This document shows positions 21,520 through 46,374 of a stretch of DNA of 64,000 nt, piece after piece. How positions within the stretch are numbered: the first letter of the stretch is position 1; each line of letters starts with the position of its first letter. This stretch comes from an uncultured bacterium. GTDB taxonomy: Bacteria > Krumholzibacteriota > Krumholzibacteriia > JACNKJ01. Under the pieces are notes generated by a model. It did not search any database. It was not told the DNA's origin and saw nothing but the letters and a program-made list of their open reading frames with translations. Where the stretch lies: NCBI GenBank assembly GCA_963695095.1, contig CAVOFT010000001.1, positions 256,001 through 320,000 of the forward strand. Reading direction: 5' to 3'. The position numbers were made by a program, and so were the translations under genes.

Positions 21520-21524
21520 ACGCG

Positions 21525-25423: not shown

Positions 25424-26782
25424 TCACCCCTTTTCCATCCGGCCGCCGGCGCGGATGATCTCCGCGTAGAGGCGGCCGCTGTCCTTGATCCGGCGCTGCC
25501 GGCTCACCGGATCCACGCCGACGATGCCGAAGCGCTTGCTCAGGCCCTCGGCCCACTCGAGGTTGTCCAGCAGGGACCAGGCGAAGTAGCCGCGCAGGTC
25601 CACGCCGCGCGCCAGGGCCGCCTGCGCCTCGCGCAGATGTGCCTGCAGGTAGGCGCCGCGCAGGGGATCGGCGATGCGGCCGTCGGCCGCCGGCGGGGGA
25701 TCGGCGAAGGCGGCGCCGTTCTCGGTGACGTAGATGGGCAGCGGCCGCGCCGCCTGCCAGACCCGATCGAGCACCTCGCCGAGGCCGGCGGGATAGACCT
25801 CCCAGTCGGTCTCGGTGTGCAGGGCGGCCGACTGGCGGACGCTGGCCGCGGCGAGGAAGCCGGCCTGCGCATCGTGACGCACCACGCTGCGCGTGTAGTA
25901 GTTGACGCCGATCCAGTCCAGCGGCTGCTGGATGCGTTCGAGATCGGCGGCCGGGATCGCGGGCCAGTCGGCGCCGAAGCGCTCGGCGAGCAGCGCCGGA
26001 TAGGCGCCCGTCATCAGGGCGTCGAGGAAGAAGCCGTTCATGTAGGCGTCGGCGCGGCGGACGGCGGCCCGGTCGGCGGCGCTCTCGCTCGCCGCGTGCT
26101 TGGGCTCCAGGTTGAGGACGATGCCGAGCTCGCCGGCGCCGGCGGCGCGCAGGGCGGCCAGGCCGGCGGCATGCGCGCGCAGCAGGTTGTGCGCGACCCG
26201 CGCGGCCTCGGCGAGGCTGCGATGCCCAGGCGCGTGGCAGCCGTGGACATAGCCGGCGTCCATGACGACCCAGGGCTCGTTGAGGGTGGCCCACATCGCC
26301 ACCCGGTCGCCGAGCGCGGCGTGGACGATCGCCGCGTAGTCGGCGAACCAGCCCGCGCAATCGGGGTTCAGCCAGCCGCCGCGATCCTCGAGAGCGGCGG
26401 GCAGATCCCAGTGGTAGAGCGTGAGGCAGGGGCGGATGCCCGCGGCCAGCAGACCGTCGACGAGGCGGCGGTAGAAGTCCAGGCCGGCCCGGTTGACCTC
26501 GCCCGTGCCGGCGGGCAGCACCCGCGCCCAGGACAGGCTGAAGCGATAGGCGTTCAGGCCGAGGGTCTGCATCAGCTGCAGGTCCTCGGGCCAGCGGCGA
26601 TAGTGGTCGCTGGCGATGGCCACCGCTTCCGGGTCGCGCACGCGCCCGGGCTCGCGGGCGAAGCGATGCCAGATGCTCTCGCCGCCGCCGTCGGCCAGCG
26701 GCGAGCCCTCGATCTGGTAGGCGCTGGTCGCGGCGCCCCAGAGGAAGCCGGGGGGGAAGGCGCGGCTGGGCTCGTCCGTCAT
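25424..26782 (-). CDS. bglA: GH1 beta-glucosidase
   Basis: FLWGAATSAYQIEG, TLYHWDLP, TLNEPW (acid/base), YVTENG (nucleophile), WSLLDNLEWAEG; no signal peptide. Confidence 0.95.
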   Translation of the reverse strand: MTDEPSRAFPPGFLWGAATSAYQIEGSPLADGGGESIWHRFAREPGRVRDPEAVAIASDHYRRWPEDLQLMQTLGLNAYRFSLSWARVLPAGTGEVNRAGLDFYRRLVDGLLAAGIRPCLTLYHWDLPAALEDRGGWLNPDCAGWFADYAAIVHAALGDRVAMWATLNEPWVVMDAGYVHGCHAPGHRSLAEAARVAHNLLRAHAAGLAALRAAGAGELGIVLNLEPKHAASESAADRAAVRRADAYMNGFFLDALMTGAYPALLAERFGADWPAIPAADLERIQQPLDWIGVNYYTRSVVRHDAQAGFLAAASVRQSAALHTETDWEVYPAGLGEVLDRVWQAARPLPIYVTENGAAFADPPPAADGRIADPLRGAYLQAHLREAQAALARGVDLRGYFAWSLLDNLEWAEGLSKRFGIVGVDPVSRQRRIKDSGRLYAEIIRAGGRMEKG

Positions 26783-29700
26783 TGCGCAGCTCCCGCGTCG
26801 GGACCCAGGGTGACGGCCACACGGTGTTCACGGCCGTCGCGCAGGAGGGGAAGGCGGCACTGCCCGCGCTCGACGGGCAGGCTCTGGCCGTCGACGGCGC
26901 AGGCGACCACGGCCTCGGCGCAGCCCTGGGGATTGCCGACCGCGATGTGATAGAGGGTGCCCGCGACCTCCCCCGGCGGCCGATAGCGGATCTCGAAGCC
27001 CGGCCAGTCGTCGGGAATGGCCGGCGCGAGGCGCAGCCACAGGCCGCCCTCGAGGCGCAGGCCCAGCAGCGACTCCAGGGCGACGCGCAGCATCCAGCCC
27101 GAGGAGCCCGTGTACCAGGTCCAGCCGCCGCGGCCCACGTGGGGCGCCACGCCGTAGATGTCGGCGGCCATCACGTAGGGCTCCACCTGGTAGCGCGCCA
27201 CGTCCGCCGGCGTGGCGCTGCGATTGATGGGATTGAGGAGCGCCAGCAGGGGAGCGACGCGATCGCGCCGGCCCAGCATGGCGAAGGCGCGCACGAGCCA
27301 GAGGGCGGCATGGGTGTACTGGCCGCCGTTCTCGCGCACGCCGGGCAGGTAGCCCTTGATGTAGCCCGGGTCCTGCGCCGTGCGGTCGAAGGGCGGCGCG
27401 AGCAGGCGGATCAGGCCCTCGGGCTCGGAGACGAGCTGCTCCTCGGCGGCGGCCATGGCGCGCCGCGCCCGCTCGGGCGGGGCCGCGCCGGAGAGCACGG
27501 ACCAGGCCTGCACGAGCGCGTCGATGCGGCACTCGTCGCTCTCGCGCGAGCCGAGGGGCGCGCCGCTGTCATAGTAGCCGCGGCGATACCAGTCGCCGTC
27601 CCAGCCGGCCGCCTCCAGGGCGAGGAGCAGCGCGTCGCGGTGCTGCGCATAGCGAAGGCGGCGCTCCTCGTCGGCCCGGGCGGCGACGAGGGGCAGGAAG
27701 GCGTCGATCACCGTGACCAGGAAGAAGCCCATCCAGACGCTCTCGCCGCGACCCTCGCGGCCGACCCGGTTCATGCCGTCGTTCCAGTCCCCGCCGCCGA
27801 AGAGCGGCAGGCCGTGCGCGCCGCTCGTCAGGGAGCGGTCGAGGGCGCGGCAGCAGTGCTCGTAGAGGCTGGCCGGCCGGCCGGCCGGAACGAGGGGGAG
27901 CAGGGCCTCGTCTTCGCCCGGCGCCAGGGGCCGCGCGCGCAGGAAGTCGATCGACTCGCCGAGCAGGCCCGCGTCCCCCGTGGCGGCCAGGTACTCGGCG
28001 GCCAGCAGGGGCAGCCAGAGCAGGTCGTCGGCGAAGCGCGTGCGCAGACCCAGCTCGAGCAGGGGATGCCACCAGTGCATCACGTCGCCCGCCTCCAGCT
28101 GATGGGCGGCGTGAAGCAGGATCTGGCGCCGGGTCAGCTCGGGCTCGTGCAGCAGCAGGGCCCCGGCATCCTGGAGCTGATCGCGAAAGCCGAAGGCGCC
28201 GCCGGATTGATAGCCGGCGCTGCGGCCCAGGATGCGACAGCTGAGGGTCTGGTAGGGCAGCCAGGCATTGACCAGCAGGTCCAGCTCCGGCGCCGGCGTG
28301 CTCACCTGCAGGCGATCGCAGAGGCCGCGCCAGCTGGCGTTGACTGCGCTGAAGGCGCGGCGCCAGGCCGCGGGCTCTTCATGGCGACGGCAGATGTCGA
28401 GGATCTCGTCTTCGCTGTCGGCCTCGCCGAAGAGGAAGCAGAGCTCCGTGCTCGCGCCGGGCTCCAGCTCGAGCTGCAGCCGCTGGGTGAAGCAGGGATC
28501 GCCCGCGGCGCTCGCCTCCAGGCGGCCGCTCCGCAGCGCGGCCGGCGAGGCGAGGTCCAGCCCGTCGCCGAGAAAGGCCGCGCGGTCGCCGCCCGCCTGC
28601 GCCTCGCCCGCGGCACCCGGCGTCCGCAGGGCGGCGAAGGCGATCGGCGAGGCGAGGCCGCGGCGCCGCGCCCGCAGGTCGCCCGCTCGCTCCCCCGCGC
28701 TCACGAGGAGATGGCGCCGGCTCTCGCCGACCGGGGCGCCCAGACTGAGCAGCGTGTGCGCCCAGAGGGACAGGCGCCGGCGGCCGCTGCCCAGGTTGCG
28801 CAGGCGGATGTGCGTCAGGCGCAGGGGGTCGCTCTGGGCGGCGAAGAGGAGGGTGGCCTGCTCGAGCCCGCCATGGACCAGCAGGCAGCGGCTGTAGCCG
28901 ATGCCGTGGCGCAGCTCGTAGTCCGCGGCCGCGGGCGCCGGGCCCGGCAGCAGGGACCAGAAGTCGCCGCTGTCCTCGTCGCGCAGATAGAAGGCCTCGC
29001 TGTGGGGATCGAGAAGGGGATCGTTGGCCCAGGGGCTGAGGCGATGCTCGCGGCTGTTGCCCCGCCAGGTCGAGCCGGCCCCCGTCTCGCTGATCAGGAA
29101 GCCGAAGCTCTCGTTGGCGATCACGTTGATCCAGGGCCGCGGCGGCAGCCGGAGGCCGCCCGGCCGCTGGGGCAGGCGGAGGACGTACTCCCGCCCATCC
29201 TCGCTGAAGCCGCCGTAGCCGTTGAAGCAGCGCAGGTCTGCCGATTCCGGCGGGTCGGCCATGGCGCTCTGCGCACTCTCGTCCACGGGGCCCGCTGCCG
29301 CTGCGGGCCATGGCGCTGCCTGGCCGTGCACTGGACTCAGGACGGGCAGGCGATCCCGGGGCGCGCAGCAGGCGGCGGCTTCCAGCGCCTGCAGTTCCGC
29401 CGCGCTCCACTCGGCCGCCGCCAGGCGCCGGCGGCCATCGATCGCGCTGCCTGGCCGCGCGTCCCGGCCGTCCCCGCCCTCCTCGCCGACGGTGAAGAGA
29501 TCGAGGGGCAGAGCAAGTGCGTGCCAGTAGAGCTGCCCACGGCCGAGGAGCTCGAGATCCGCAGCCGCCAGCCGGCGCTCGTCGGCGAGCAGGAAGGCGC
29601 GGTCGGGGCCGAGGCCCAGGCGCTCCTGGAGGAGGGCGCGGGGCATTGGCGCCACGGACTGGGCGGCCGCCGGCCAGAGCGCCGGGTGGTCGAGCATCAG

Positions 29701-30618
29701 GCCGGCCGCGAGCTGCTCGAAGTAGGCGGCGTCTTCACCGCTCAGCCCCAGCTCGGCGAGCATGTGCAGCTGGGAGGTCCGCGCCCCTTCGAGCACGCTG
29801 GCGAGGTGCCCCGGCGCGCTGAGGCGCTCGAGCATCGCGAACGCGGAGTTCTCATCCCGAACGGCGCTGAGCACCACCACGAGCTCGGCGATCTCGCCGG
29901 CGGCCAGGACCAGCTCCCGCCGCAGGCAGAGGCCTGGGTCCAGCACGCTGCCCGTGCGGCCGCCGAGCTCGGCCAGGGCGGGCGCGATGCTCGCCAGGCG
30001 GGCGCTCGCGGCGCGGGGCAGCAGCCGGCTCCGGTCGCTCTCGTGGGCGATCGGCGCGCTGCCCGGCATGGCCAGGACCAGGGGCGGCGTCTCCTCCTCG
30101 GGCTGCCGCGGCCGGCGCCGGACGACGAGCGCCCTGGCATCGGGCAGCCACTCGGTCTGCAGGAAGAGCTTGGAGAAGACCGGATGGGCGGCGTGGGCCG
30201 CCGCCGGGAGCAGGACGGGTTCCAGGTAGGCGCTCAGCTCCAGGCGGCGGCTGCGGCCCCCTTGGTTTGTGACCCGGACCCGGCGCACTTCGAGGTCGAG
30301 ATCCGGATGGACGAGGACCTCCAGCTCCGTGTCGATCTCGCCCTGGCGGCCCGCCAGACGGGCGCTGCCCGCGCGCCAGCTCGCCGTGTAATCGGTTTCA
30401 GGCTCGCCGTCGCCCACGCCCAGGGGCCAGGCTCTCCGCTGTTCGACATCGCGCAGCAGGAGCTGCAAGCCGCCCCGCAGGTCCCAGCGGCCCCCATGGC
30501 AGTCGCTGAGGGAGAGCGCTCCCAGACGGGAAAATCCCGTGCCCATTGAAGTTAGGGCAACGGTGTAGCGCCCATTCGAGAGCAGGCGCGTGAGGGGAAG
30601 CCGCCCTGGACCCATCAT
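26779..30618 (-). CDS. GH94 glycoside phosphorylase (NdvB/Cgs C-terminal type, 1,2-beta-oligoglucan phosphorylase-like)
   Basis: LLSNGRY, HPVFSKLFLQTE, FNGYGGFSEDGREY, PWINVIAN, YQSGGAFGFRDQLQD, GDWNDGMN, GVRENGGQYTH, WTWYTGSSGW; no TM or GT84 domain. Confidence 0.9.
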   Translation of the reverse strand: MMGPGRLPLTRLLSNGRYTVALTSMGTGFSRLGALSLSDCHGGRWDLRGGLQLLLRDVEQRRAWPLGVGDGEPETDYTASWRAGSARLAGRQGEIDTELEVLVHPDLDLEVRRVRVTNQGGRSRRLELSAYLEPVLLPAAAHAAHPVFSKLFLQTEWLPDARALVVRRRPRQPEEETPPLVLAMPGSAPIAHESDRSRLLPRAASARLASIAPALAELGGRTGSVLDPGLCLRRELVLAAGEIAELVVVLSAVRDENSAFAMLERLSAPGHLASVLEGARTSQLHMLAELGLSGEDAAYFEQLAAGLMLDHPALWPAAAQSVAPMPRALLQERLGLGPDRAFLLADERRLAAADLELLGRGQLYWHALALPLDLFTVGEEGGDGRDARPGSAIDGRRRLAAAEWSAAELQALEAAACCAPRDRLPVLSPVHGQAAPWPAAAAGPVDESAQSAMADPPESADLRCFNGYGGFSEDGREYVLRLPQRPGGLRLPPRPWINVIANESFGFLISETGAGSTWRGNSREHRLSPWANDPLLDPHSEAFYLRDEDSGDFWSLLPGPAPAAADYELRHGIGYSRCLLVHGGLEQATLLFAAQSDPLRLTHIRLRNLGSGRRRLSLWAHTLLSLGAPVGESRRHLLVSAGERAGDLRARRRGLASPIAFAALRTPGAAGEAQAGGDRAAFLGDGLDLASPAALRSGRLEASAAGDPCFTQRLQLELEPGASTELCFLFGEADSEDEILDICRRHEEPAAWRRAFSAVNASWRGLCDRLQVSTPAPELDLLVNAWLPYQTLSCRILGRSAGYQSGGAFGFRDQLQDAGALLLHEPELTRRQILLHAAHQLEAGDVMHWWHPLLELGLRTRFADDLLWLPLLAAEYLAATGDAGLLGESIDFLRARPLAPGEDEALLPLVPAGRPASLYEHCCRALDRSLTSGAHGLPLFGGGDWNDGMNRVGREGRGESVWMGFFLVTVIDAFLPLVAARADEERRLRYAQHRDALLLALEAAGWDGDWYRRGYYDSGAPLGSRESDECRIDALVQAWSVLSGAAPPERARRAMAAAEEQLVSEPEGLIRLLAPPFDRTAQDPGYIKGYLPGVRENGGQYTHAALWLVRAFAMLGRRDRVAPLLALLNPINRSATPADVARYQVEPYVMAADIYGVAPHVGRGGWTWYTGSSGWMLRVALESLLGLRLEGGLWLRLAPAIPDDWPGFEIRYRPPGEVAGTLYHIAVGNPQGCAEAVVACAVDGQSLPVERGQCRLPLLRDGREHRVAVTLGPDAGAAQ

Positions 30619-30749
30619 TCTCTCCGATCCGCGTCCCGCCGGTCTTGGCACCGCGATTTCCGGGGTCCCACCCTGACTTCTTACTACTGAGAGTCTCGGC
30701 GGCGCAAGCGCCGCCACAGCACCGAGGTGTTGACTTTCTTACCAGTTTA

Positions 30750-30763
30750 TGTAACCGTTTACA
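30750..30763. promoter_or_regulatory. Candidate LacI-family operator 3
   Basis: Near-palindrome TGTAACCGTTTACA with the central CG typical of LacI operators, in the AT-rich gap between the GH94 gene and lacI; TTGACT at 30730-30735. Confidence 0.75.
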
Positions 30764-30821: not shown

Positions 30822-31919
30822 GTGGCTACCATTCGTGATGTCGCCGAGGCGGCCAGCGTTTCCATCGCCACCGTTTCCCGAGTCCTGAACAACAAGGCGA
30901 GGGTCAACGAGGAGACGGCGCGGCGCGTCTGGACGGCGGCCGCCGATCTTGACTACTCGCCCAACGAGGCCGCGCGCACGCTGACCACGAATCGCACGCG
31001 CGTCATCGGCGTCCTCCTGCCCGACCTGCACGGGGAGTTCTTCTCCGAGGTCATTCGCGGCATCGATCAGGCCGCGCGGGAGGCCAAGTATCAGATCCTC
31101 GTCTCCAGTTCACATGCGGATCACCAGGAGGTGATGACGGCGGCCAGGTCCATGCAGGGCCGCATCGACGGCCTCATCTTCATGGCCTCGGACAACGGAC
31201 TCGCGGAGGCCGTGGATCGCATCCAGGGCCGCATGCCGCTGGTGCTCATCAACCCGCGGCGCGTCGTCAAGGGCATGGCCTCCCTGCGCATCGGCAACTT
31301 CATGGGTGCGCGCGAGGCCGTGAGCCATCTCCTGCGGCTGGGCCACGAGGACATCGCCATCCTGAAGGGCCCCAGCGGCAACATCGACGCCGAGGAGCGC
31401 CTGCGGGGCTATCGCCATGCCCTGGCGGCGGCGGGCCGGGATCTGGGGGCTTCGCGGGAATTCCAGGGCGACTTCCGGGAGCCCTCGGGCTACCGCGCCG
31501 CCGCCGAAATCCTGGGCGGCCGCCAGCGGCCCTCGGCGGTCTTCGCCTGCAACGACATGATGGCGATCGCCCTCATCAGCGCCTTCGGCGGCGCCGGCCT
31601 GAAGGTGCCCGAGGACATCGCGGTCGTCGGCTTCGACGACATCGCCATCGCCCGGTTCATCCACCCGCCCCTGACGACCGTGCGCGTGGAGGCCCATCAG
31701 CTGGGCCAGCGCGCCCTGCGGCGCTTGATTGCCTCCCTGGGCGGAGACGAGACGGACGGCGCCGCGGAAGAGGTGCTCTCCGCCACGCTCGTCGTCCGCG
31801 AATCCTGCGGCGCCTATCTGGCCCGCCACAGCTCAACCACTTCCCGACGGGAAGAGCCCCTGGTGATGCACGGCTCGCCAGCCGCCGAGGGCTCGGCCCC
31901 TGACGCAAAGGGAGACTGA
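30822..31919 (+). CDS. LacI-family transcriptional regulator
   Basis: GTG start; ATIRDVAEAASVSIATVSRVLN HTH; FACNDMMA, VPEDIAVVGFDD, PPLTTV. Confidence 0.95.
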   Translation: MATIRDVAEAASVSIATVSRVLNNKARVNEETARRVWTAAADLDYSPNEAARTLTTNRTRVIGVLLPDLHGEFFSEVIRGIDQAAREAKYQILVSSSHADHQEVMTAARSMQGRIDGLIFMASDNGLAEAVDRIQGRMPLVLINPRRVVKGMASLRIGNFMGAREAVSHLLRLGHEDIAILKGPSGNIDAEERLRGYRHALAAAGRDLGASREFQGDFREPSGYRAAAEILGGRQRPSAVFACNDMMAIALISAFGGAGLKVPEDIAVVGFDDIAIARFIHPPLTTVRVEAHQLGQRALRRLIASLGGDETDGAAEEVLSATLVVRESCGAYLARHSSTTSRREEPLVMHGSPAAEGSAPDAKGD

Positions 31920-31920
31920 G

Positions 31921-33811
31921 ATGAGAACGTCGGCAGTCACACTGATCGTCGCAGCGCTGCTCTGCGGGCTGGTGCTGCCCGCGGTCGGCCAGATCGAGGG
32001 CCGCGAGGACGCGATCTGGGCGAAGCGCGCTCTGAACCCGATCCAGCTCGACGGCATTCTGAACGAGGCGGACTGGGCGCTGGCCGAAACCCACGTCATC
32101 CGCTGGGCGGAGAGCGCGGGGCTGCCCGGCAGCGGCTGGAAGCTGGAGAACGGCAATCCCAACGATCCCACCGAGGCCACGCTGCGCCTGCTCGTCCACG
32201 GCAACCAGCTCTACCTGGCGATGGAAGTGCCGGACGCCTCGATCGGCGGCTCCCGCGACTTCAATCGTCATGACGGCTTCCTGATGTCGCTCAAGGACCA
32301 TTCGGTGGCGGGCTATCCCAAGCCGATGACCGAGTACTTCTACGCCTGGTGGTACCCGACGGGCACCGATCCCCAGCCGCCGGGCAGGGAGCCCGCCTTC
32401 ATCGGCCGCTGGGCGACCTGGCCGCCCGGCACGCCGCGCACGGCCGAGCAGATTGCCGCCTGGGACGCCGTGACCATCGTGGATGGCCTGTCCAACAACG
32501 ACAGCGTGGCGGACACGGGCTACACGGTGGAGATGCGCTTCGACCTGACGGTGATGGGCTACGACGTCACCCGCCCCGAGGGCGACATCGTCGAGTGGAA
32601 CATCTCCGTCTACGACTGCGACTGGCTGTGGCCCCTCAACGCCGCGCAGCTGAACTACTATCACGTCTGGTGGCAGTGCCCCTGGGGCTACGACGACTGG
32701 TACAACGAAGTGCGCATCTATGCGCGGCCCGACGTGACGACGGCCGTGCCGACGCCTCCCCTCGAGCCCGAGTTGATGCTGCCCGTGATCGAGGCGCAGC
32801 CCGTCATCGACGGCGAGCTGAGCGAGGCCGTCTGGAGCGATCCCAACGTCTACAGCTTCGACATCCGCTACGGCGACGATGCCCTGCGCGAGACCTATCC
32901 CGGCGTCGGCGCCGCCCGCGCCGGCCAGTACCAGCCCATCGTCAACGGGGGCGAGGCCTTCGTCTTCGATCCCGGCGAGGCCACGGTCAAGATCTTCGTC
33001 AGCGGCGACACGATGTACTTCGGCTTCGACGTCAACGACGGCTATGTCCAGTACGTCGCGAACTTCGACCGCTGGGACGGCTTCCTGCTGAACTTCAATG
33101 ACCGCGCCGCCACCGGTCCCGACCACCAGTTGCTGGGCCGGCGCCTGTCCTTCCAGGTGGGCGCCGACGGCGCGGCGGTGCCGCGGGACTACCTGGTGGG
33201 CCTGGTGGACGCGGGGGACGCCCAGGTCGCCATCGACCTGAAGGCCGGCACGAGCGTGGACACGCTCGGCGTGGCGACCGACACCGGCTACACGGCCGAG
33301 CTGGCCCTCGATCTGAAGGCGCTGGGCTACCCCAGCGGCCTGGGCGACCGGGTGGTCTTCTTCGGCGTCAACCTGCTCGATGGCGATTCGTTCACGCCCT
33401 ACACCTTCAGCTATGGCACGCGCACCTGGTGGTTCCGCCAGTACGAGGGCAACTGCTGCGCCGCCTGGGCGGAGATCGAGCGGGACACCGGCGTGGACGA
33501 GGGCGTCACCGATTGGGCGAGCGACAACGGCGGCTACCTGCTGCTCCCCAGCTACCCGAATCCGTCCGCGCAACCCTCCGTGCGCTTCCAGATGCCCGCC
33601 TACGGCGAGGTGACCCTGGAGGTCTTCGACCTGCTGGGTCGCCGGCTGCTGCGCCGGCCGATGGGGCTGCGCGGGCTCGGCGTCCACTCCGAGTTCCTGG
33701 ACCTGACCGAGCAGAGCGCGGGCGTCTACCTGTATCGCATCACCATCGAGGACCCGAGCACCGGCCAGAAGCGCGCCGAATTGACGGGCAAGACGGTGCT
33801 TGATCAAGTGA
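31921..33811 (+). CDS. Secreted protein with two CBM9/DOMON-like repeats and a T9SS-type CTD
   Basis: Repeats IQLDGILNEADW...GYTVEMRF and PVIDGELSEAVW...GYTAELAL; CTD SYPNPS...VFDLLGRR...AGVYLYRI. The likely true end is TVLIK* (TGA 33809-33811) after a 1-nt indel; the as-read ORF runs to 33867. Confidence 0.7.
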
Positions 33812-33874
33812 AGGCCGCCGGGCGCGGGGGCTCACCCGCGCCCGGGGTCGCAACGCAAGGGGGATGAGGCCATC

Positions 33875-36551
33875 GTGATCGGCAAGGAGGCTGTCCTCAG
33901 GCGCCTGACTGCGCGCCTGCTCGTTGCCGCTCTGCTCGGGAGCCTGGCGGCGTCTGCGCTGGCCGGCACGACGGGCAAGCTGGCGGGACAGGTCCGCGAC
34001 GACCAGGGCGCCCCCATCGTCGCCGCGACGGTGCTCGTCGCCGGCACCGCCCTGGGCGCCTACTCCGACGCCGGGGGGCAGTTCACGATCCTCAACGTGC
34101 CGCCCGGGCTGTACGAAGTCACGGTCAAGCGCCTCGGCTTCCAGGATCTGCGCATGAAGGCGATCTCCGTCTCCGCCGACGAGACCACGCGGCTCGACTT
34201 CGTGCTCCGGGCGGAGGACCTGGTCATGGACGAGGTGGTGGTCACGGCCGAGCGGCCCCCCGTCGAGCTGGACCTGACCAGCTCCAAGGCGACGCTCTCC
34301 AGGGAGGACATCGCCGCGCTGCCCGTGCAGGATCTGGACGACGTCGTCAGCCTGCAGGCGGGCGTGGTCGAGGGGCACTTCCGGGGCGGCCGCAAGGGCG
34401 AGGTGCAGTACCAGGTGGATGGCGTGAGCGTGAACAACGTCTTCGACAATTCCACCAGCATCAATGTCGACCGCTCGCTGCTGCAGGAGGTGCAGGTGAT
34501 CAGCGGCACCTTCGACGCGGAGTACGGCCAGGCGATGAGCGGCGTCGTCAATGCCGTGCTCAAGGAGGGCGGCCAGACGCTCGCCTGGAATGTCGAAGGC
34601 TACACCGGCGGCTTCGTCTTCCCGGGCCGCGCGGACCTGCGCAAGACCTCGGCCACGCTGCGCCCCGTCTCGACGCGCTACATCCAGGCCTCGGCCAGCG
34701 GCCCGCTGCCTTTTCCGGACACGGTGTACCTGGTCAGCGGCCGCTACGCCTACTTCGACGACTACGTCTACGCCGAGCGGCGCTTCGCCCCCACGGACAC
34801 CCTCGACTACCTGGCGGGAACGCACAGCCAGAGCGGCGACGGCAAGGAAGTGCCGCTGGGCTACAACCGGGACTGGGGCGGCCTCTTCAAGGTCAGCAAC
34901 CGCAGCCTGGACAGCGACAAGATCAGCTACCAGGCCATCGCGGACTTCAACCGGGGCCGGCGGGGCGACTTCGCCTTCCGCTACAACCCGGACGGCCTGT
35001 CCACGCAGCGGACCTTCGCCATCTCGCACGGCGGCGACTGGACGCACACCCTGGGCGCGACCAGCTACTTCGACGTCAACGTGCGCCAGAACTACTTCGA
35101 CTACCGCGACTACCGCTACGAGGACGTCAAGGACCGGGGCTATGACGCGGCGGGTCCGGCGACCGGCTACGTGAACTACGAGGACGGCGCCATCATCGAG
35201 GGCGTCAGCTTCACCCGCTACCTGCAGAAGACCAACACCTTCATGAGCAAGGGCGTCTTCGTCAGCCAGCTGACGCCGGCGAGCCAGATCAAGATCGGCG
35301 GCGAGCTGCAGATGGCGCGGGTGACCTTCGGCACGCCCGGCCACCTCTCCTTCGTCATCGATCCCGAGACGAACACGGAGGTGCTGATCCGGCACGTCGA
35401 CGACCCGCCCAGCTTCCCGGGACCGCGCACCTACCATCCGATCATCGCCGCGAGCTTCGTCCAGAATCAACTGGAATGGGCCGACCTGATCGTGCGCGCC
35501 GGGCTGCGCCTGGACTACTTCAATGCGCGCTCCTCCCTGCCCGGCGACCTCGCCAATCCCGCCAACGCCATCGCCGGCGCGCCGGCGCCGCCGCCCATGC
35601 GCACGTCGGCGAAGGTCGCGCTCTCGCCGCGCCTGGGTATCGCCTATCCGATCGAGGACAAGGCCGCCATCCACTTCGCCTACGGCCACTTCCGCCAGTT
35701 CCCGGCCATCGGCGACATGTTCAGCAACGCCGACTACTCGGTGCTGGAGAACCTGCAGGCGGGGGGCATCAGCTACGGCGTCCTGGGCAACCCGGACGTG
35801 GAGCCCGAGAAGACGATCCAGTACGAGGTGGGCTACCGTCAGGCGCTCAGCGACGATCTGGGCTTCGAGCTCACGACCTACTACAAGGACATCCGCGACC
35901 TGCTCGGCGTCGAGTTCGTCTCCACCTACAACGGCGCCGAGTACGCGCGCCTGACGAACGTCGACTTCGGCAACGTGTTCGGCACCACGGTGGCCATGGA
36001 CCATCGCCATCTGGGACCGGCGAGCGTGGGCCTCGACTACACCTGGCAGCGGGCGCTGGGCAACGCCAGCGATCCCCGGGAGACCGCGGTGCGGGCGGAG
36101 AACGGCGAGGATCCGCGGCCGCGGGTGATTCCCTTCAACTGGGATCAGCGCCATTCTTTGAACCTGACCGTTGCCGTGGGCACGCCCGGCGTGAACAGCG
36201 CGAGCATGGTGATGCGCGTCGCCAGCGGCCAGCCCTACACGCCCTATCCTGGAATCCGGCTTCGGCTACGGGCTGGACGCCAATTCCGGCCGCAAGCCGG
36301 CCGGCTTCAGCCTGGATCTGCGCAGCGAGCGCGGGGTGCAGGTCGGCCGCCTGCGTCCGCTGGTGTTCCTGCGCGTCTTCAATGTCCTGGACACCCGCTT
36401 CTTCAACGGCGACGTGTTCGCCACCACGGGCAGCCCCTACTACTCGCGCAATCCCGAGGGAGACAAGTACGCCCTCATGAATCCCTTCCGCTACTTTCCA
36501 CCGCGCCGCATCGAGCTGGGTGTGCGCTTCGAGTCCGGGGGTGGGCAATGA
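33875..36551 (+). CDS. TonB-dependent receptor with an N-terminal carboxypeptidase-regulatory-like domain (indel ~36247)
   Basis: GTTGKLAGQV..., plug HFRGGRKGEVQYQVDGVSV...SGTFDAEYGQAMSGVVN, SPRLGIAYP, GNPDVEPEKTIQYEVG. The C-terminal strand PRRIELGVRFE lies in the shifted frame ending at TGA 36551. Confidence 0.88.
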
Positions 36552-39500
36552 GGAACACGCACGCCCTGCGCCTGGCGGCCCTGCTTGCCCTCGCATTGCT
36601 CGTGCCCGCCCGCCCTGCGGGCGCGGACGTGGACACGCCGGTGCCGCCCTCCGAGCGCGGGCGCAGCGATGCCGAGCGGCGCGGCTTCCACGACGCCAAC
36701 AACCTGCGCACGGAGTTCTGGAACTTCGGCATGGTGGGCAACTACCCGCCCGATCCCGGCAACGTCGACCTGAGCACCTTCCACTCGGTCGAAGTGCCCA
36801 AGGGCAGCGGCATGAACTACAGCGACGGCATCACGCCCTTCGTGCTCGCCAAGATCCGCACCACCGGCGGCAACGACGCCTACATCATGGAGACGGGCTT
36901 CCGGGAGCGCCAGGGCATCAGTCCCTACTACAACCGCGTGATGCGCTTCGAGCCGCGCCCGGGCTACTTCGAGGCGGACCCCGCCATCAATGTCGGCCGC
37001 GCCTGCGCCGTCAGCAACGACTCGCGCACCTGGCCCGGCTTCTGGCCCGATCGCCTCGACGAGAGCGATGATCCGGGCTGGCCGGGCAGCTGGAACGGCT
37101 ACTTCGGCAAGCAGGTCGTCGCCGACCAGGAGAGCTACACGGTCCTGGACGACGACTACTACGACGCCTGGCAATTCTATCCGGACGCCCGCGACTCCAC
37201 CCGCCGCGGCCTGGGCCTGCGCATCGAGGTGCGCGGCTTCCAGTGGGCGAATCCGCAGGCGCGCAACGTCATCTTCTGGCACTACGACATCACCAACGAG
37301 AGCACGACGGACTACGACGACAACATCCTCTTCGGCGTCTACATGGACTCCGGCGTCGGCGGCTCCGCGCTCTCCTGCGACGGCATCTTCGAGTCCGACG
37401 ACGACAACGCCTTCTTCGACCGCGCCTTCAACGAGGACATCCTGAATCTCGTCTACACCTGGGATCGCTTCGGCCACGGCCGCGATCTCGCCAGCTCCTG
37501 CGGCCGCACCGGCTATCTCGGCTACGCCTACCTGGAGACGCCCGGCAACTCCACCGACGGCATCGACAATGACGAGGACGGCGTCACGGACGAGCTGCGC
37601 GAAGGGGGCCCGGGCAGCCTGCTCATCGGTCAAGCGGCGATCGACGGCTACCTGGCGGCGAACTACGACCTGGTCCGCTTCGAGGCCACCTACGGTCCCC
37701 TGGCGGACCTGCCCGCCTATCGCGAGGAGTACTGGTGGACCGGTGACGAGGACATGGACTGGACGCGGGAGAATCACGACACCGGCGCCGACGGCGTCTT
37801 CGATACCGGCGACGTCGGCGAGGAGGACGGCGTGCCGACCGCCGGGGAGCCGAACTTCGACCGCACGGACCTGAACGAGTCCGACCAGATCGGCCTGACC
37901 GGATTCAAGATCAACCGCATTCGCGCGGGCCAGGGCAATCCGAGCCAGGACGTGGACGGCATCGTCTTCTACACCGACGAGGCGAACTGGCCGCAGCGCC
38001 TCTACGAGCAGTTCACGGACCCGGATCCGGAGGCGCGCTTCGATCCGCCGCTGGCTTCCAACTACAACATCGGCTTCCTGTTCGCCTCCGGACCCTTCCG
38101 CCTGGCGGCGGGTCAGCGCGAGCGCTTCAGCCTCGCCCTGGCCTACGGCGCCGATCTGGACGAGCTGCGGCGCACCGTGAAGACCGTGCAGCAGATCTAC
38201 GACGCCAACTACCGCTTCGCCGTGCCCCCGGCGCTGCCGACCGTGACCGCCGAGGCGGGCGACGGCTACGTGCGCCTGTCCTGGGACGACGTCGCCGAGT
38301 TCAGCGCCGATCCGGTGACCGGGGTCTTCGACTTCGAGGGCTACCGTGTCTATCGCTCCACCGATCCCGAATTCCGCGATCCGCAGGTGATCTCCACGGG
38401 CACGGGCAGCGGGCCGCTGGGCAACGGCAAGCCGATCGCGCAGTTCGATCTCGTCGACGGCCGCAGCGGCTTCTCCGCGCAGGTGGTGGAGGGCGTCGCC
38501 TACTACCTGGGCACGGAGAGCGGGATCACCCACACCTGGACCGACCACAGCGTGACCAACGGCCAGCAGTACTACTATGCGGTCACGGCCTACGACTTCG
38601 GATCGGATCCCGGCGACCGCTTCGACTTCTACCCTTCCGAGAACGCGATCACGCCCAGCCGCACGCCGCGGGGTGGCCTGATCCTGCCGACCAATGTCGT
38701 CGCCGTGCGGCCCAATCTCCGCGCGGCCGGCTACGTGCCCGCGCAGGCGGAGGCCGCGGCGCAGGTCAGCGGCCGCGGCCTCGGCGAGGTGCTCGTCGAG
38801 ATCGTCAACTCGGGGCTCGTGCCCGATGAACACCTGTTCAAGATCGACTTCAGCGCGCCGTCCGCCGACAGCCTGCGGGCTACGCACTACGCGCTGCGCG
38901 ACAGCACGACGGGCCTGCTCCTCTTCGAGACGGGCAGGGATCTGGCGGGCGCCGGCGTGGGGCCCGTCGGTCAGGGCCTGCTGCCCGTGATCCGGACGCA
39001 GACGGAAGTCGCTGTCGACTCCAGCTCCGGCTTCGCCGCGGGCAGCGCCACGGATGCCCGACTGGCCGTGAGCTACTCGCCCGGCCTGCCCATCAATCGC
39101 CTGCGGCCGGGCTTCCCGGACGACATCAGCATCATCTTCGCGGACGCCGTGCAGGACACCGGCCTCGGCGGCGCGCCCTTCCTGCCGACGCCGGCCAAGT
39201 TCCGTGTCATCGCCCACAGCGCCGGCGGCGACCGGCAGCTGGATTTCCGCTTCCGGGACGCCAACGGCGACGGCACGCTCAGCCATCGCGACGACGCCAT
39301 CGACATCGTCACCTACCTGCCCACGTCGCCGGGCACGATCAACAGCACCTGGTACCTCACGCTGCCGCTGGGTACGGCCTTGCCGCAGAACCCGCCGCGC
39401 GAAGGGGACCGCTACGAGCTGAAGCTGACGCGGCCCTTCGCCGAGGACGACAGCTTCGTCTTCCTCTGTTCGGGCGAGCGGATCGACGGTGCGCGCGTGG

Positions 39501-39817
39501 GGGCGGAGTTCACGCCCTACGTCGTGCCCAACCCCTACGTGGGCTCGGCGAGCTTCGAACCGGAGCGATTCGCGGTCTCGGGGCGCGGCGAGCGCCGGCT
39601 GGAGTTCCGCGGGCTGCCGAGCCGGTGCCAGATTCTCATCTACAACGTCAAGGGCGAGCGCATCCAGACGCTTCGCCACGACGGCTCTCTCGAAGGCTAC
39701 GTCGCCTGGGACCTGCGGACGAAGGAGGGCCTCGATGTCGCACCGGGGCTCTACATCTTCCAGGTCGACGGCGGCGCCGCGGGTAGCAAGACGGGCAAAT
39801 TCGCCATCATCAAGTAG
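36548..39817 (+). CDS. Large secreted receptor-partner protein with Asp/Gly Ca-binding-like repeats, an Fn3-like domain and a variant CTD
   Basis: ATGA overlap with the receptor stop; own signal peptide MRNTHALRLAALLALALLVPARPAGA; DGIDNDEDG, DTGADGVFDTGD; VRLSWD..FEGYRVYRS..YYYAVTAYD; C-terminal YVVPNPY...IYNVKGERI...WDLRT...PGLYIF...KFAIIK. Confidence 0.85.
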   Translation: MRNTHALRLAALLALALLVPARPAGADVDTPVPPSERGRSDAERRGFHDANNLRTEFWNFGMVGNYPPDPGNVDLSTFHSVEVPKGSGMNYSDGITPFVLAKIRTTGGNDAYIMETGFRERQGISPYYNRVMRFEPRPGYFEADPAINVGRACAVSNDSRTWPGFWPDRLDESDDPGWPGSWNGYFGKQVVADQESYTVLDDDYYDAWQFYPDARDSTRRGLGLRIEVRGFQWANPQARNVIFWHYDITNESTTDYDDNILFGVYMDSGVGGSALSCDGIFESDDDNAFFDRAFNEDILNLVYTWDRFGHGRDLASSCGRTGYLGYAYLETPGNSTDGIDNDEDGVTDELREGGPGSLLIGQAAIDGYLAANYDLVRFEATYGPLADLPAYREEYWWTGDEDMDWTRENHDTGADGVFDTGDVGEEDGVPTAGEPNFDRTDLNESDQIGLTGFKINRIRAGQGNPSQDVDGIVFYTDEANWPQRLYEQFTDPDPEARFDPPLASNYNIGFLFASGPFRLAAGQRERFSLALAYGADLDELRRTVKTVQQIYDANYRFAVPPALPTVTAEAGDGYVRLSWDDVAEFSADPVTGVFDFEGYRVYRSTDPEFRDPQVISTGTGSGPLGNGKPIAQFDLVDGRSGFSAQVVEGVAYYLGTESGITHTWTDHSVTNGQQYYYAVTAYDFGSDPGDRFDFYPSENAITPSRTPRGGLILPTNVVAVRPNLRAAGYVPAQAEAAAQVSGRGLGEVLVEIVNSGLVPDEHLFKIDFSAPSADSLRATHYALRDSTTGLLLFETGRDLAGAGVGPVGQGLLPVIRTQTEVAVDSSSGFAAGSATDARLAVSYSPGLPINRLRPGFPDDISIIFADAVQDTGLGGAPFLPTPAKFRVIAHSAGGDRQLDFRFRDANGDGTLSHRDDAIDIVTYLPTSPGTINSTWYLTLPLGTALPQNPPREGDRYELKLTRPFAEDDSFVFLCSGERIDGARVGAEFTPYVVPNPYVGSASFEPERFAVSGRGERRLEFRGLPSRCQILIYNVKGERIQTLRHDGSLEGYVAWDLRTKEGLDVAPGLYIFQVDGGAAGSKTGKFAIIK

Positions 39818-39832
39818 CGCGAAAGGACGACG

Positions 39833-40849
39833 ATGGCACTGCCGAGACGACTGCTGATCTGCCTCCTCTGCTTGCTGGGCTCAGCGGGGCCCGCGGCTGC
39901 CCAGACCAAGGCGGGCACCACGATCGCCCAGTTCATGGGCATCGAGCCGAGCGCCCGCCACGCGGGCTTCGGCAATGCCGGCATCGCGCTGGCGGAGGGG
40001 ATCGAGTCGGTCTACTTCAATCCCGGCGTCATCGGACTGCTGTGGGACACGGAGATCCAGTTCACCCACAGCTACTGGTACGCGGACATCGGCTACGACT
40101 ACGCGGCGATCTGCGTGCCCGCCCGCCGCTGGGGCACGCTCTTCGCCAGCGTCACCGCGCTCAACTCGGGGGACATCGCCGTCCGCACGGTCGAGTCCCC
40201 GCTGGGCACGGGCGAGAATTTCACGGTGGGCAACACGGCGATCGGCCTCGGCTTCGGCCGGCAGGTGACGAGCCGCTTCGCGGCGGGCCTGCGCTTCAAC
40301 TACATCAGCGAGCGGATCTGGCACACCTACCAGAACACGATGACGCTGGATGTCGGCACCGTCTACGCGATCCGCGAGAATGGCCTCCAGATGGCCTTCA
40401 GCCTCAGCAACGTCGGCACCGGCTCGCGCTATACCGGGCGCGACCTCGCCATCCAGTACGACAACACCGACGACATCTACGGCGACAACAGCGCCCTGCC
40501 CGGCGAGCAGCTCACGGACAGCTATCCGGTGCCGATCCTGTTCCGGGTCGGCCTGAGCTATCCCTACCAGGTCAGCGCCGATTCGCGCGTGCTCCTGCTG
40601 GCGGACGCCCTGCATCCCAACGACAACGCCGAAAGCGTGAACCTGGGCGCCGAGCTGGGCTGGCGCGGCAGCTTCGCCCTGCGGATCGGCTATCAGACCC
40701 TCTTCCAGACGGATTCGGAGCACGGCCTGACGATGGGCATGGGCATCCGGACCGAGTTCAGCGAGAGACGACTGCGCTTCGACTACGGCTGGGCCAATCA
40801 CGATCACCTCGAGGCGACGCATCGCCTGACGATTGCGGTCGGCCTCTAG
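39833..40849 (+). CDS. PorV/PorQ-family (FadL-like) outer-membrane barrel
   Basis: AQFMGIEPSARHAGFGNA...SVYFNPG N-terminal signature, barrel strands, FDYGW...HRLTIAVGL. Confidence 0.82.
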   Translation: MALPRRLLICLLCLLGSAGPAAAQTKAGTTIAQFMGIEPSARHAGFGNAGIALAEGIESVYFNPGVIGLLWDTEIQFTHSYWYADIGYDYAAICVPARRWGTLFASVTALNSGDIAVRTVESPLGTGENFTVGNTAIGLGFGRQVTSRFAAGLRFNYISERIWHTYQNTMTLDVGTVYAIRENGLQMAFSLSNVGTGSRYTGRDLAIQYDNTDDIYGDNSALPGEQLTDSYPVPILFRVGLSYPYQVSADSRVLLLADALHPNDNAESVNLGAELGWRGSFALRIGYQTLFQTDSEHGLTMGMGIRTEFSERRLRFDYGWANHDHLEATHRLTIAVGL

Positions 40850-40866: not shown

Positions 40867-42479
40867 ATGCTGGCGAGACATTGGCATCGGGCCCACCCCT
40901 GGCGGCAGCTGCTCGCGACCGCGCTGCTGGGAGTGGCGCTGCTGGGCGCACTGGCGACGACGGCGCCGGCCATCCCCACCGCGGAGCTGCTGGAGTCCAT
41001 CCAGGAGGGCGCCTTCGCCTACTTCTGGAACGAGGCGAATCCCGCCAACGGCCTGATCAAGGACCGCAGCACGGGCAGCTCGCCCTGCAGCATCGCCGCC
41101 GTCGGCTTCGGGCTGTCGGCCATCTGCATCGGTGTCGACCACGGCTGGATCACGCGCGCGCAGGGCCGCGAGCGCGTGCTGACGACCCTGACGACCTTCT
41201 GGAACGGCCCCCAGGGCAGCGAGGTCTCCGGCAACATGGGCTACCGGGGCCTCTTCTACCACTTCCTGGACATGAACAGCGGCACCCGCGTCTGGAACTG
41301 CGAGCTGTCGACCATCGACACCGCGCTGCTCCTGGCGGGCGTTCTCGACGCGGCGCAGTACTTCCAGGGCGGCGATGCGGAGGAGACGGAGATCCGCGCC
41401 CTGGCGGACTGCGCTCTACCGGCGGGTGGACTGGGAGTTCATGCGCAACTCGGGCGTCGGCATCCGCATGGGCTGGAAGCCGGAGGGCGGCTTCTCCGGC
41501 TTCGGCACCTGGGTCGGCTACAACGAGGCGATGATCCTCTACATCCTCGCCCTCGGCTCGCCGACGCATCCGGTGCCCGCGAGCACCTGGTTCACCTGGA
41601 CCAGCGGCTACCAGTGGTCGACCCAGTACGGCCAGACCTACCTCATCTTCCCGCCGCTCTTCGGCCACCAGTACTCGCACTGCTGGATCGATTTCCGCAA
41701 TCGCCAGGATGTCTACATGGCCAGCAAGGGCATCGACTACTTCGAGAACTCGCGACGGGCCACCCTCGCCGCCCAGGCCTACTGCATCGGCGAACCCGCT
41801 CGGCCATGCCGGCTACAGCGAGCTCGGCTGGGGGCTCACGGCCTCGGACGACCCCTGGGGCTACAGCGCCCACGGCGCGCCGCCCGCCCAGAACGACAAC
41901 GGCACGATCACGCCCACGGCGGCGGCCAGCTCCATTCCCTTCGCGCCGGAGATCGTCATTCCGACGCTGCACCACTTCTACGACAGCTATCAGAGCCAGC
42001 TCTGGGGCCCCTACGGCTTCAAGGACGCCTTCAATCTCGATCAGAACTGGTGGGCGACCGACTACATCGGCATCGACCAGGGCCCGATCATCATCATGAT
42101 CGAGAACTACCTGAACGAGTCCATCTGGCGGCGCTTCATGCAGAACGCCCACGTGCAGGCCGGCCTGGCCGCGGCGACCTTCTCGCCGATCACCGCCGGC
42201 GCCCCTCTGGCCCCGGATGGCCTGACCCTCGCGCAGAACACGCCCAATCCCTTCCTGGACAGGAGCGTCATCCGCTTCACGCTCGCCCAGGCCGGCGAGG
42301 TGTCGCTGCGTCTCTACGATATCACGGGTCGGCGCGCGGCCACGCTCGCAGAGGGCTGGCGCGGGGCCGGCGCCCACAGCGTACCGCTGGAGGCGAGCGC
42401 GCTGCCCAGCGGCGTCTACTTCTATGTCTTGGAGAGCAACGGCGTCACCGCGATGCGCCGTTGTGTTGTCCTGAGGTAG
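40867..42479 (+). CDS. Secreted GH144-type glucanase with a T9SS-type CTD (indels ~41410, ~41790)
   Basis: AFAYFWNE, SIAAVGFGL, GLFYHFLD, ELSTIDT, YNEAMILY, LFGHQYSH, GIDYFENSRRAT, WGLTASD, DYIGIDQGPI; CTD QNTPNPF...LYDITGRR...PSGVYFY...VVLR. Confidence 0.85.
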
Positions 42480-42591
42480 TCATGGATGACGATGCATGAA
42501 GGAGGCTAACCCCGTAACAAGGAGATCGCGTGAAGTGCAACTCGTGTCAACGCAACAGAACCTTAGTCTTGTATCCAGGAGGATCACTACC

Positions 42592-46348: not shown

Positions 46349-46374
46349 GGTCCACCTCCAGGGTCTGGAGCGTC

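Follow-up and report, generated by a model that had tools for sequence, protein, structure and literature searches.

In the T9SS attachment complex of P. gingivalis, PorZ and PorU keep their CTDs on the barrels PorQ and PorV, according to the published model (PMC10202324). For type B CTD proteins and PorP/SprF barrels (SprB-SprF, PG1035-PorP), the secreted protein and its anchoring barrel are encoded by adjacent genes (PMC9143113). Two published loci of cultured relatives carry a TonB-dependent receptor, the Ignavibacterium album beta-1,2-glucan cluster (PMC8861115) and the Rhodothermus marinus xylan locus Rmar_1067-1081 (PMC6987092); the table of the latter paper lists Rmar_1070-1072 as a receptor, a hypothetical CTD protein and a hypothetical exported protein, with a SusC/SusD pair further on. 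In the accessible sections of both papers, the genes after the receptor are given no role. The literature searched, in which subscription papers were largely absent, gave no description of the cassette analysed here and no experiment on any of its members.

A first-pass annotation of the window (the whole stretch of 64,000 nucleotides analysed here) had described a tight, translationally coupled triplet of a TonB-dependent receptor, a partner of about 1090 aa lacking a lipobox and a PorV/PorQ-like barrel. This arrangement was found as described. The receptor gene (33875..36551, + strand, GTG start, about 890 aa in relatives) encodes a CarboxypepD_reg-like extension, a Plug and a TonB barrel (Pfam PF13715/PF13620, PF07715 and PF00593). 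Its frame shifts near 36245, the C-terminus being read in another frame up to a TGA at 36551, and this stop overlaps the partner ATG at 36548 (ATGA). The partner (36548..39817, + strand, 1089 aa) is followed after 15 bp by the barrel gene (39833..40849, + strand, 338 aa).

The frameshift suspected in the receptor was traced to one extra base at 36246, which is missing from contigs about 94% identical obtained in two runs of one study. Since, in addition, an intact relative aligns to both reading frames, the shift is most likely an assembly indel. A real pseudogene or a programmed frameshift was rejected, relatives being intact and a second gene of the locus also carrying indels; so was a true receptor-partner fusion, since it is the extra base that creates the 1980-aa open reading frame. 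With the SusC/RagA family model TIGR04056 (cut-off 368.25), the part of the receptor that precedes the frameshift (790 aa) scored 71 bits, the best stretch being N-terminal (35-157).

Receptor, partner and barrel form the core of a LacI-type GH94/GH144/GH1 beta-1,2-glucan locus. Upstream lie a LacI-family regulator (30822..31919, + strand, PF00356 and PF13377, start from the gene call) and a secreted protein with a CBM9-like region and an ordinary type A CTD (31921..33867, + strand; PF06452 24.4 bits, cut-off 23.4; TIGR04183 27.5 bits, cut-off 23). In most close loci whose flank is long enough, the latter immediately precedes the receptor, and it is a candidate for the true glycan-binding protein of the locus. 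Downstream lies a candidate GH144-type endo-beta-1,2-glucanase with a type A CTD (40867..42479, + strand; PF10091 matched in two frames, TIGR04183 32.7 bits), read in three frames owing to two frameshifts in the assembly, with one extra base at 41409 relative to its relatives. The divergent arm carries a GH94 phosphorylase (26779..30717, - strand, PF17167 and PF06165) and a GH1 beta-glucosidase (25424..26782, - strand, PF00232). Between the divergent GH94 and lacI genes lies a near-palindromic LacI-type operator candidate (30750..30763, + strand); its pattern, designed for the present analysis and used without a shuffle control, matched once in positions 20001-44000 of the window and, for 40 of the 61 related loci longer than 14 kb, within their first 10 kb. 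Clustering of regulator and CAZymes (LacI, GH94, GH1, PF10091) around the receptor is conserved in relatives.

The partner belongs to a large family (3135 clusters at 50% identity, E<=0.001), and no named family emerged when its sequence was searched against Pfam, NCBIfam, PDB and the ESM Atlas. No Pfam match was obtained at E<=0.01, and none to a GH family; the best PDB sequence reached only E 0.77, and NCBIfam returned a weak FlgD match alone (E 0.025). As judged by eye, its N-terminus resembles a signal peptide (basic, hydrophobic, A-G-A pattern) without any cysteine, and a lipobox-like pattern occurred in 2 of 120 relatives. The predicted structure (pLDDT 87.2, pTM 0.77) comprises, after the signal peptide, a beta-supersandwich with an Asp/Gly insertion, a linker helix, an Fn3-like domain, a variable beta stalk and a PorZ-like CTD. 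The Fn3-like and CTD regions proposed from the sequence are thus both seen in the model, and the Asp/Gly Ca-type motif occurs at three sites (mature residues 311-314, 385 and 878).

Foldseek with the whole model retrieved Fn3/Ig repeats with TM under 0.1. The supersandwich domain (36653..38155, + strand, about mature residues 10-510) best matched dextran dextrinase 9ju0 (Z 19.8, rmsd 3.0, 260 aligned) and glucoamylase 1lf6 (Z 19.5), then GH94 6ggy (Z 17.5), GH174 9k1g (Z 14.5) and the mutarotase-like 3os7 (Z 14.1). The modelled head of the partner thus looks like the non-catalytic N-domain type of GH15/GH94 carbohydrate enzymes. No (alpha/alpha)6 catalytic barrel was present in the model, which has only nine short scattered helices, the longest of 16 residues. 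By sequence, too, the partner is no known enzyme, which supports the earlier interpretation. Residues D167, E169, D176, R203 and Q206 are conserved in at least 90% of 149 partner sequences, and no histidine of the head is conserved in over half of the distant members. W32, Y179, W182 and Y480 are fixed among the close family and variable in distant members, as would be expected of a substrate-specific surface.

The CTD (39503..39814, + strand) has seven strands and is closest to that of PorZ (5m11, Z 12.8, rmsd 2.3, 101 aligned; Foldseek E 2.6e-6), PorU reaching Z 9.5; the CTDs of PorZ, PorU, mirolase and NucA were among the top four to five VIA matches. The PorZ model NF052228 matched 90 of 91 family CTDs at E<=0.1; in the partner this match covers the CTD only, at 16 bits against a cut-off of 260, and does not denote a full-length PorZ orthologue. 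Scoring the CTD with the type A and type B models had been suggested, and neither fits: the isolated domain reached 13.6 bits with TIGR04183 (cut-off 23) and gave no match to TIGR04131 at E<=0.1, where 3 of 91 family members matched weakly. At the profile level, the partner CTD is distinct from the ordinary CTDs of the genome, as the first-pass annotation had remarked, since the partner-CTD profile gave 50-149 bits with five proteins and at most 29 with the other 65 matches.

The barrel is a PorV/PorQ-family protein (NF033709 164 bits, cut-off 90) that falls below the cut-offs of both specific models, with 84.7 bits for PorQ (NF033711, cut-off 220) and 51.1 for PorV; its profile matches F. johnsoniae PorV (6h3i) at E 1e-15. 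A canonical porU-porV pair lies elsewhere in the genome (PorU 438 bits, cut-off 420, with an adjacent barrel that scores nearest PorV), which excludes the cassette as that pair and upholds the proposal of a dedicated barrel. In a FastTree phylogeny, 62 cassette barrels stood apart from six other paralogues of the genome (support 94, long branches), hinting at a separate group. The PorP/SprF family (TIGR03519) was absent from the NCBIfam matches of the barrel at E<=0.1; a genome-wide search for this family returned nothing, its control being equally silent. The type B precedent that had been invoked, with its PorP/SprF barrel, was therefore rejected, the CTD lacking a TIGR04131 match and the barrel a PorP match. 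What stands of it is a CTD protein with its own barrel alongside. Because the CTD is PorZ-like and the barrel nearer PorQ than PorV, the appropriate precedent is PorZ-PorQ.

We surveyed the neighbourhoods of partner homologues for the constant receptor and PorV-like neighbours and varying CAZymes that had been anticipated, and found them. Leaving out contig-edge loci (5 + 15 on the receptor side, 2 + 10 on the barrel side), the receptor lies upstream of the partner in 75/75 close and 64/65 distant loci, and the barrel downstream in 78/78 and 67/70. Intergenic gaps are below 50 bp in 73/74 and 72/74 close loci, and even a minimal partner homologue of 621 aa (hhalign probability 99.7) occurs in the same gene order. 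This association is far beyond chance. The enzymes beside the constant triplet include GH16/GH3, GH13/CBM20, GH94/GH144, GH92/GH43/GH130, GH9, GH5, GH18, GH2, GH38, GH10/GH67, an amidase and peptidases; four cassettes had no glycan enzyme among the scanned neighbours. An orthologue of the partner is present in 30 of 101 genomes of the phylum. Genomes contain many diverged copies of the cassette, each in a catabolic locus of its own, and one paralogue in the source genome, read by eye, adjoins exbB/exbD/tonB-like genes.

Departures from the triplet were also observed. One locus (L213/L214) has the order barrel-receptor-barrel-partner-partner-partner, with three partners for one receptor. One partner has neither receptor nor barrel nearby, two others lack the barrel, and the one solo copy of the minimal family open to inspection carries an ordinary type A CTD with neither gene within about 8 kb. 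In the source genome, two of the five variant-CTD proteins are separated by 36 and 76 kb from the nearest PorV-family gene, and no receptor directly adjoins six other CTD-protein/PorV-family pairs. Across 41 distant cassettes, the identities of the receptor and of the partner are correlated (Spearman 0.58), reflecting co-inheritance, not contact. Co-variation over 104 paired triplets (effective number 93), too shallow a set, placed inter-chain pairs at noise frequency. A complex prediction for one cassette (L193; receptor barrel of 640 aa without plug and head of 350 aa without Fn3) scored 0.00 in two runs and, the controls not having folded, is evidence neither way.

As had been noted, no SusD-like lipoprotein accompanies the triplet: none was found among the 15 locus proteins scanned, nor was SusD (PF07980) in the genome, which is 93.5% complete, a control being detected. 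Among 151 genomes, the partner occurred in 0/27 SusD-rich genomes vs 62/124 others, counts in which related genomes are not independent. Strict mutual exclusion was nevertheless rejected, cassette and SusD being found together in 31 of the 62 partner-bearing genomes and once inside a single locus, the xylan locus L223/L224. The cassette is thus more than a substitute in places that lack SusD; calling it an alternative to SusCD is right for single loci, that xylan locus excepted, but not for whole genomes (31/151 have both).

SprA, which the first-pass annotation had proposed to look for, scored over cut-off in the source genome. At E<=1e-60 it was detected in 46 of the 52 genomes that carry the partner; the six misses had candidates under this strict threshold and do not prove absence. 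GldM was detected in 0/52 partner-bearing genomes, the source genome included, vs 12/12 controls, though diverged forms may escape the search, and in the source genome GldK gave nothing beyond weak matches below cut-off.

Taken together, we lean towards a reading in which the triplet forms the core, at the outer membrane, of a locus for the use of beta-1,2-glucan and is one copy of a cassette that serves again and again for many glycans. The signal peptide would take the partner across the inner membrane, and the CTD would direct its export through the SprA translocon; with a CTD fold in the model and SprA in the genome, this export is very probable. The PorZ-like CTD would then escape PorU cleavage and stay bound to the co-encoded PorQ-like barrel, as PorZ on PorQ, leaving the partner on the cell surface without a lipid anchor. 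By this analogy, anchoring on its own barrel is probable. The barrel would hold the partner beside the receptor, where the supersandwich/Fn3 head may capture the oligosaccharide released by the GH144 enzyme, or dock the CBM-bearing proteins of the locus, and pass the oligosaccharide to the TonB-energised receptor. Genomic context and fold speak slightly in favour of the partner being the capture subunit, contacting the receptor and binding glycan; it would then work like SusD and surface glycan-binding proteins together, though unrelated to SusD. Of the lid or binding subunit proposed earlier, the binding role is the part retained, as context and fold suggest. A SusD-like closing lid, one version of the capture step, is rather doubtful, and a lid paired one-to-one with its receptor agrees poorly with a locus of one receptor followed by three partners and with solo partners. 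Against the reading as a whole, besides these departures, the co-occurrence with SusD, the cassettes without a glycan enzyme among the scanned neighbours and the failure to detect GldM, there are two further points: mutarotases use the supersandwich fold, assigned here from the model, for catalysis, and GH174 was among its matches; and the sugar could be bound, instead, by the CBM9-like CTD protein next to the receptor.

That protein also bears on a different role for the partner, as a barrel-anchored scaffold or cap that stabilises the receptor or docks CBM-bearing or enzymatic CTD proteins and binds no sugar. Its place before the receptor in most close loci, the CBM9, CBM4 and CBM20 proteins beside many distant cassettes, and the conservation of the partner core residues across cassettes for unrelated substrates would suit such a role, and there is a precedent in a PorV-related barrel packed against BamA, to which a surface protein is attached (10.1101/2025.01.31.636011). 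We consider it unlikely, in view of the carbohydrate-enzyme fold of the head, the subfamily specificity of some surface-type aromatics and the existence of solo copies with an ordinary CTD. The same solo copies suggest stand-alone use and, with the GH174 endo-fucanase and mutarotase-like matches and the five highly conserved polar residues, could indicate an unrecognised surface enzyme of the supersandwich type, be it a hydrolase, a lyase or a mutarotase, that is held by its own barrel and trims the substrate for the receptor. The supersandwich domain of the best-matched enzymes, however, is their non-catalytic part, and the helical barrel of these enzymes is absent from the partner model. Mutarotases use two histidines, and no head histidine is widely conserved here. 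One family would also need activity on alpha- and beta-glucans, mannans, xylan, chitin and peptidoglycan, so that an enzymatic role seems quite improbable.

A function in secretion instead of uptake, in which, without a GldLM motor, the TonB-coupled barrel would aid the locus's CTD enzymes in their release or display, draws on the presence of SprA in genomes where GldM went undetected, on the paralogue next to exbB/exbD/tonB-like genes and on PPIase genes beside several cassettes. It is very unlikely given the many diverged copies, each in its own catabolic locus, the restriction of the orthologue to under a third of the phylum genomes, and the ABC and solute-symporter genes that follow many cassettes, as in uptake loci. 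Finally, partner and barrel may be an anchored pair merely sharing an operon with the receptor, as the six receptor-less pairs and the solo partners might suggest; with the receptor directly upstream in 139/140 assessable loci, across phyla and at 35-40% identity, and with the identities of the two proteins correlated through co-inheritance, this is scarcely credible.

Extended beyond this locus, the preferred reading of the partner as capture subunit suggests, tentatively, a three-part, T9SS-built glycan import complex of receptor, PorQ-like barrel and exchangeable supersandwich capture proteins. In Ignavibacteria, Rhodothermia, Calditrichota, Krumholzibacteriota and Eisenbacteria, polysaccharide loci might have this complex as their main core, put together by a T9SS with SprA, PorU and PorV but no recognisable GldLM motor; the lack of detectable GldM in these genomes raises the question of how the T9SS is powered. 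Polysaccharide loci are found via SusC/SusD, so lineages using the cassette seem to have few. The partner family, large and without a Pfam name, marks catabolic loci of sediment, soil, sludge and hot-spring bacteria and is a possible substrate marker. The hypothesis, put forward in PMC10202324, that cognate PorV-like barrels protect and display CTD proteins would then apply beyond two subunits of the T9SS, to an entire family for nutrient uptake.

Compared with PorZ-PorQ and PorU-PorV, the cassette shares a CTD nearest PorZ, a barrel nearer PorQ and adjacent genes. It differs in that the CTD alone matches PorZ, the rest of the partner being supersandwich and Fn3, and in that it occurs in many copies per genome, tied to a TonB receptor and catabolic genes and not to cargo processing. 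Unlike type B/PorP systems, its CTD has no TIGR04131 match and its barrel lies outside the PorP family. The partner head shares the fold of the N-terminal beta-supersandwich of GH15/GH94/GH65/GH116 enzymes and of galactose mutarotases (Z 13-19.8), at 6-13% identity, whereas its model lacks the helical catalytic barrel and adds a large Asp/Gly insertion, a stalk and a CTD. The R. marinus layout is that of L223/L224, and from gene order we infer that the genes after the receptor in R. marinus and I. album are the same cassette; a matching layout in cultured Rhodothermus marinus makes the claim testable. Like SusC/SusD (RagA/RagB), the cassette has a receptor with a CarboxypepD_reg-like N-terminal extension followed by a surface partner, and many paralogous sets in one genome, each accompanied by CAZymes and a regulator of its own. 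In contrast to SusC/SusD, its receptor is far below the SusC cut-off (71 vs 368 bits), its partner is a 1089-aa beta protein without a lipobox where SusD is a helical lipoprotein, and the barrel is a third gene; both systems can share one locus. Found in nearly all related loci, next to many different sugar-degrading enzymes, the triplet suggests that a glycan-uptake machine can be built in another way than as a SusC/SusD pair.

The three plus-strand genes of the cassette had been placed correctly by the first-pass annotation, as judged by ORF calls and domain search. A Pfam search of the receptor (start 33875) found CarboxypepD_reg-like, Plug and TonB barrel domains. Its reading frame is broken near 36245; the genuine C-terminus is encoded in a different frame, whose stop at 36551 overlaps the partner start at 36548 (ATGA). 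Alignment to an intact relative covers both frames. In contigs obtained from two sequencing runs of a single study, one base is missing at position 36246 and another at position 41409, within the GH144 gene. We read both frameshifts as assembly indels. A 1980-aa ORF spanning receptor and partner was rejected as an artefact of such indels. Three frameshifts fall inside 6 kb (36246 and 40867-42479), and any gene that is broken in this assembly is best treated as a possible indel error.

The triplet is conserved, as had been proposed. With loci ending at contig edges left out, the receptor was found directly upstream of the partner in 75/75 and the barrel downstream in 78/78 assessable loci of the close set (the top 80 among 318 confirmed genome loci). 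The distant set (the top 80 among 507 metagenome loci; identity to their query 34-45%) gave 64/65 and 67/70. Exceptions are L105 and L137, where the partner lacks a barrel, and L156, a lone partner among mannan-type enzymes. Neighbours of the latter include GH130, GH2 and rhamnosidase-like genes, and neither receptor nor barrel occurs within 10 kb on each side. Among 101 genomes from the phylum, 30 encode an orthologue of the window partner, and one Caldithrix-labelled genome gave 19 matches across nine contigs. A partner 85% identical to that of the window carries a Krumholzibacteriota label, a hint at the lineage. A minimal family has a partner of 621 aa, which can be aligned with the main family along the second half of the head and the helix, Fn3 and CTD (probability 99.7); the gene order is kept in L191-L193 and L212. 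Related short partners of other genomes (L194-L210) are arranged differently or have no barrel in the sequence fetched around them.

The predicted variation of neighbouring CAZymes was also observed. We scanned 138 ORFs flanking distant cassettes (136 out of 234 picked, and 2 more) and found GH16/GH3, GH13/CBM20, GH94/GH144, GH92/GH43/GH130, GH9, GH5, GH18, GH2 and GH38, together with peptidases, sugar transporters and unrelated genes; none of the 138 matched SusD. Many cassettes adjoin the gene for a protein of 540-610 aa bearing PPIC-type PPIase domains (L093, L128, L146, L147, L152, L155, L160, L223:16042-17823, L227:1271-3091 and L232:9364-11103), possibly a dedicated periplasmic chaperone.

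The third gene (39833-40849) encodes a PorV-like barrel, as had been suggested: it passed the PorV/PorQ family cut-off (164 versus 90 bits) while staying under the individual PorQ (84.7 bits) and PorV (51.1 bits) cut-offs (NCBIfam). The genome containing the window (G000; 3.64 Mb, 93.5% complete) has ten PorV-family genes (11 matches, profile search). Eight lie directly 3' of a gene with a CTD-like C-terminal region, read by eye, and two belong to further receptor-partner-barrel cassettes. On contig C1 (L235-L243), the CTD-ending genes before PorV-family genes include two giant proteins of 2236 and 2863 aa, and the set also takes in an M6-like protease and a barrel fused to an OmpA-like domain.

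The partner CTD does differ from ordinary CTDs: a variant-CTD profile scored five G000 proteins at 50-149 bits and the other 65 at no more than 29. Cassettes account for three of these; the remaining two are encoded 36 and 76 kb away from the nearest barrel. Folded alone, the window CTD was nearest to that of PorZ (Z 12.8, rmsd 2.3, 101 aligned; Foldseek E 2.6e-6), followed by PorU (Z 9.5), and it scored 13.6 bits on the type A model, below the cut-off of 23. Among 91 family CTDs, 90 matched the PorZ, 83 the PorU, 67 the type A and three the type B model at E<=0.1. A review states that the CTDs of PorU and PorZ are retained, that of PorU on PorV and that of PorZ on PorQ, and proposes that cognate barrels shield CTDs against cleavage (PMC10202324). 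PorP-like barrels anchor type B CTD proteins (PMC9143113). The nearer precedent is PorZ-PorQ and not the type B/PorP system invoked earlier, neither the window CTD nor its barrel being of that type. In many minimal-family members (among P0322-P0359) an ordinary type A CTD replaces the variant one, which offers a natural test of the CTD-barrel link; in the one such locus fetched (L211, 7799-9640) neither receptor nor barrel lies within about 8 kb.

SprA was found in G000; at E<=1e-60, 46 of the 52 genomes that carry a partner had it. A porU gene (438 bits, cut-off 420) adjoins a barrel scoring nearest PorV. GldK gave weak matches alone and GldM was not found in G000; no GldM match was obtained in any of the 52 partner-bearing genomes, G000 included, versus 12/12 positive SusD-rich controls. 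By these profiles, partner-bearing genomes appear to have a T9SS with translocon, sortase and PorV and no recognisable motor.

The partner itself (36548-39817, 1089 aa) had no Pfam or PDB sequence match, and NCBIfam returned a weak FlgD match alone. In its model (pLDDT 87.2, pTM 0.77, 71 sequences), the N-terminal part is a predicted beta-supersandwich resembling the N-domains of dextran dextrinase (Z 19.8, rmsd 3.0, 260 aligned) and glucoamylase (Z 19.5), GH94 phosphorylases (Z 17.5), GH174 (Z 14.5) and mutarotase-like proteins (Z 14.1), at 6-13% identity. An Asp/Gly-rich insertion, a helix, an Fn3-like domain, a stalk and the CTD follow; the stalk is poorly conserved (24-25% identity in distant members versus 34-51% in other regions).

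Gene linkage, folds, family scores and the presence of SprA, PorU and PorV are demonstrated. Beyond these, the partner is very probably exported through SprA, its CTD is probably held on the cognate barrel, and it may well serve the receptor as a subunit for capture or docking. A scaffold without sugar binding, set against a head resembling a glucoamylase N-domain at low identity, is unlikely. The matches to GH174 and mutarotase-like proteins could suggest a surface enzyme; the helical catalytic barrel is absent from the model, and this reading is less likely still. That the cassette is a secretion aid, as the lack of a GldM match might suggest, is very improbable beside the varied CAZymes, and a partner making no receptor contact, as lone L156 might indicate, is slightly more remote again beside the near-constant upstream receptor. 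For the favoured capture subunit, a lid or binding role had been envisaged. Exchangeable partners fit better than a fixed lid, since L213/L214 (G102:C154) has the order barrel-receptor-barrel-partner-partner-partner, with three tandem partner paralogues.

No SusD was found anywhere in G000 (profile search, positive control detected), nor in five partner-bearing genomes of named loci. Across 151 genomes from the phylum to which G101 belongs, 31 had partner and SusD, 31 partner alone, 41 SusD alone and 48 neither, and none of the 27 with at least six SusD matches had a partner. Since related genomes are not independent, these figures describe a pattern among lineages and do not amount to a test. 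L223/L224 carry the cassette and a SusC/SusD pair in one xylan locus. The gene table published for the R. marinus xylan locus shows this layout too, with Rmar_1070 as receptor and Rmar_1071-1072 as hypothetical, the first with a CTD (PMC6987092). The cassette, earlier seen as a functional alternative to SusCD, is therefore a parallel system and not merely a replacement.

In the window, LacI, a CBM9-like CTD protein, the triplet and a GH144-type CTD protein follow one another on the plus strand, with GH94 and GH1 on the opposite strand. Beta-1,2-glucan would be the substrate, as inferred from enzyme family membership. A near-palindrome (30750-30763) recurs in 40/61 related loci by an ad hoc pattern without shuffle control. 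A secreted-looking protein without family match (42496-43374), kept in many close loci, ends in residues like a short C-terminal tag on other G000 proteins. An F5/8-domain protein and a weakly GH15-like protein (20775-24679) accompany the locus in several relatives. Metal ABC transporter-like genes and a Fur-type regulator (43445-46417, other strand, by eye) follow it and are apparently unrelated.

Each cassette part has known kin, and the partner family is unnamed; no description of the combination was found in the literature, including the accessible parts of PMC11285876 and PMC5317091, subscription journals being mostly outside this coverage. The window locus has the same make-up as the Ignavibacterium album beta-1,2-glucan cluster, where GH144, GH94 and a TonB-dependent transporter occur together and whose authors note that biochemical evidence is absent for close homologues of the transporter (PMC8861115). 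A structural precedent for the cassette barrel beside a larger barrel is BamF of the Bacteroidetes BAM complex, a PorV-related barrel packed on a larger barrel and holding a surface protein (10.1101/2025.01.31.636011).
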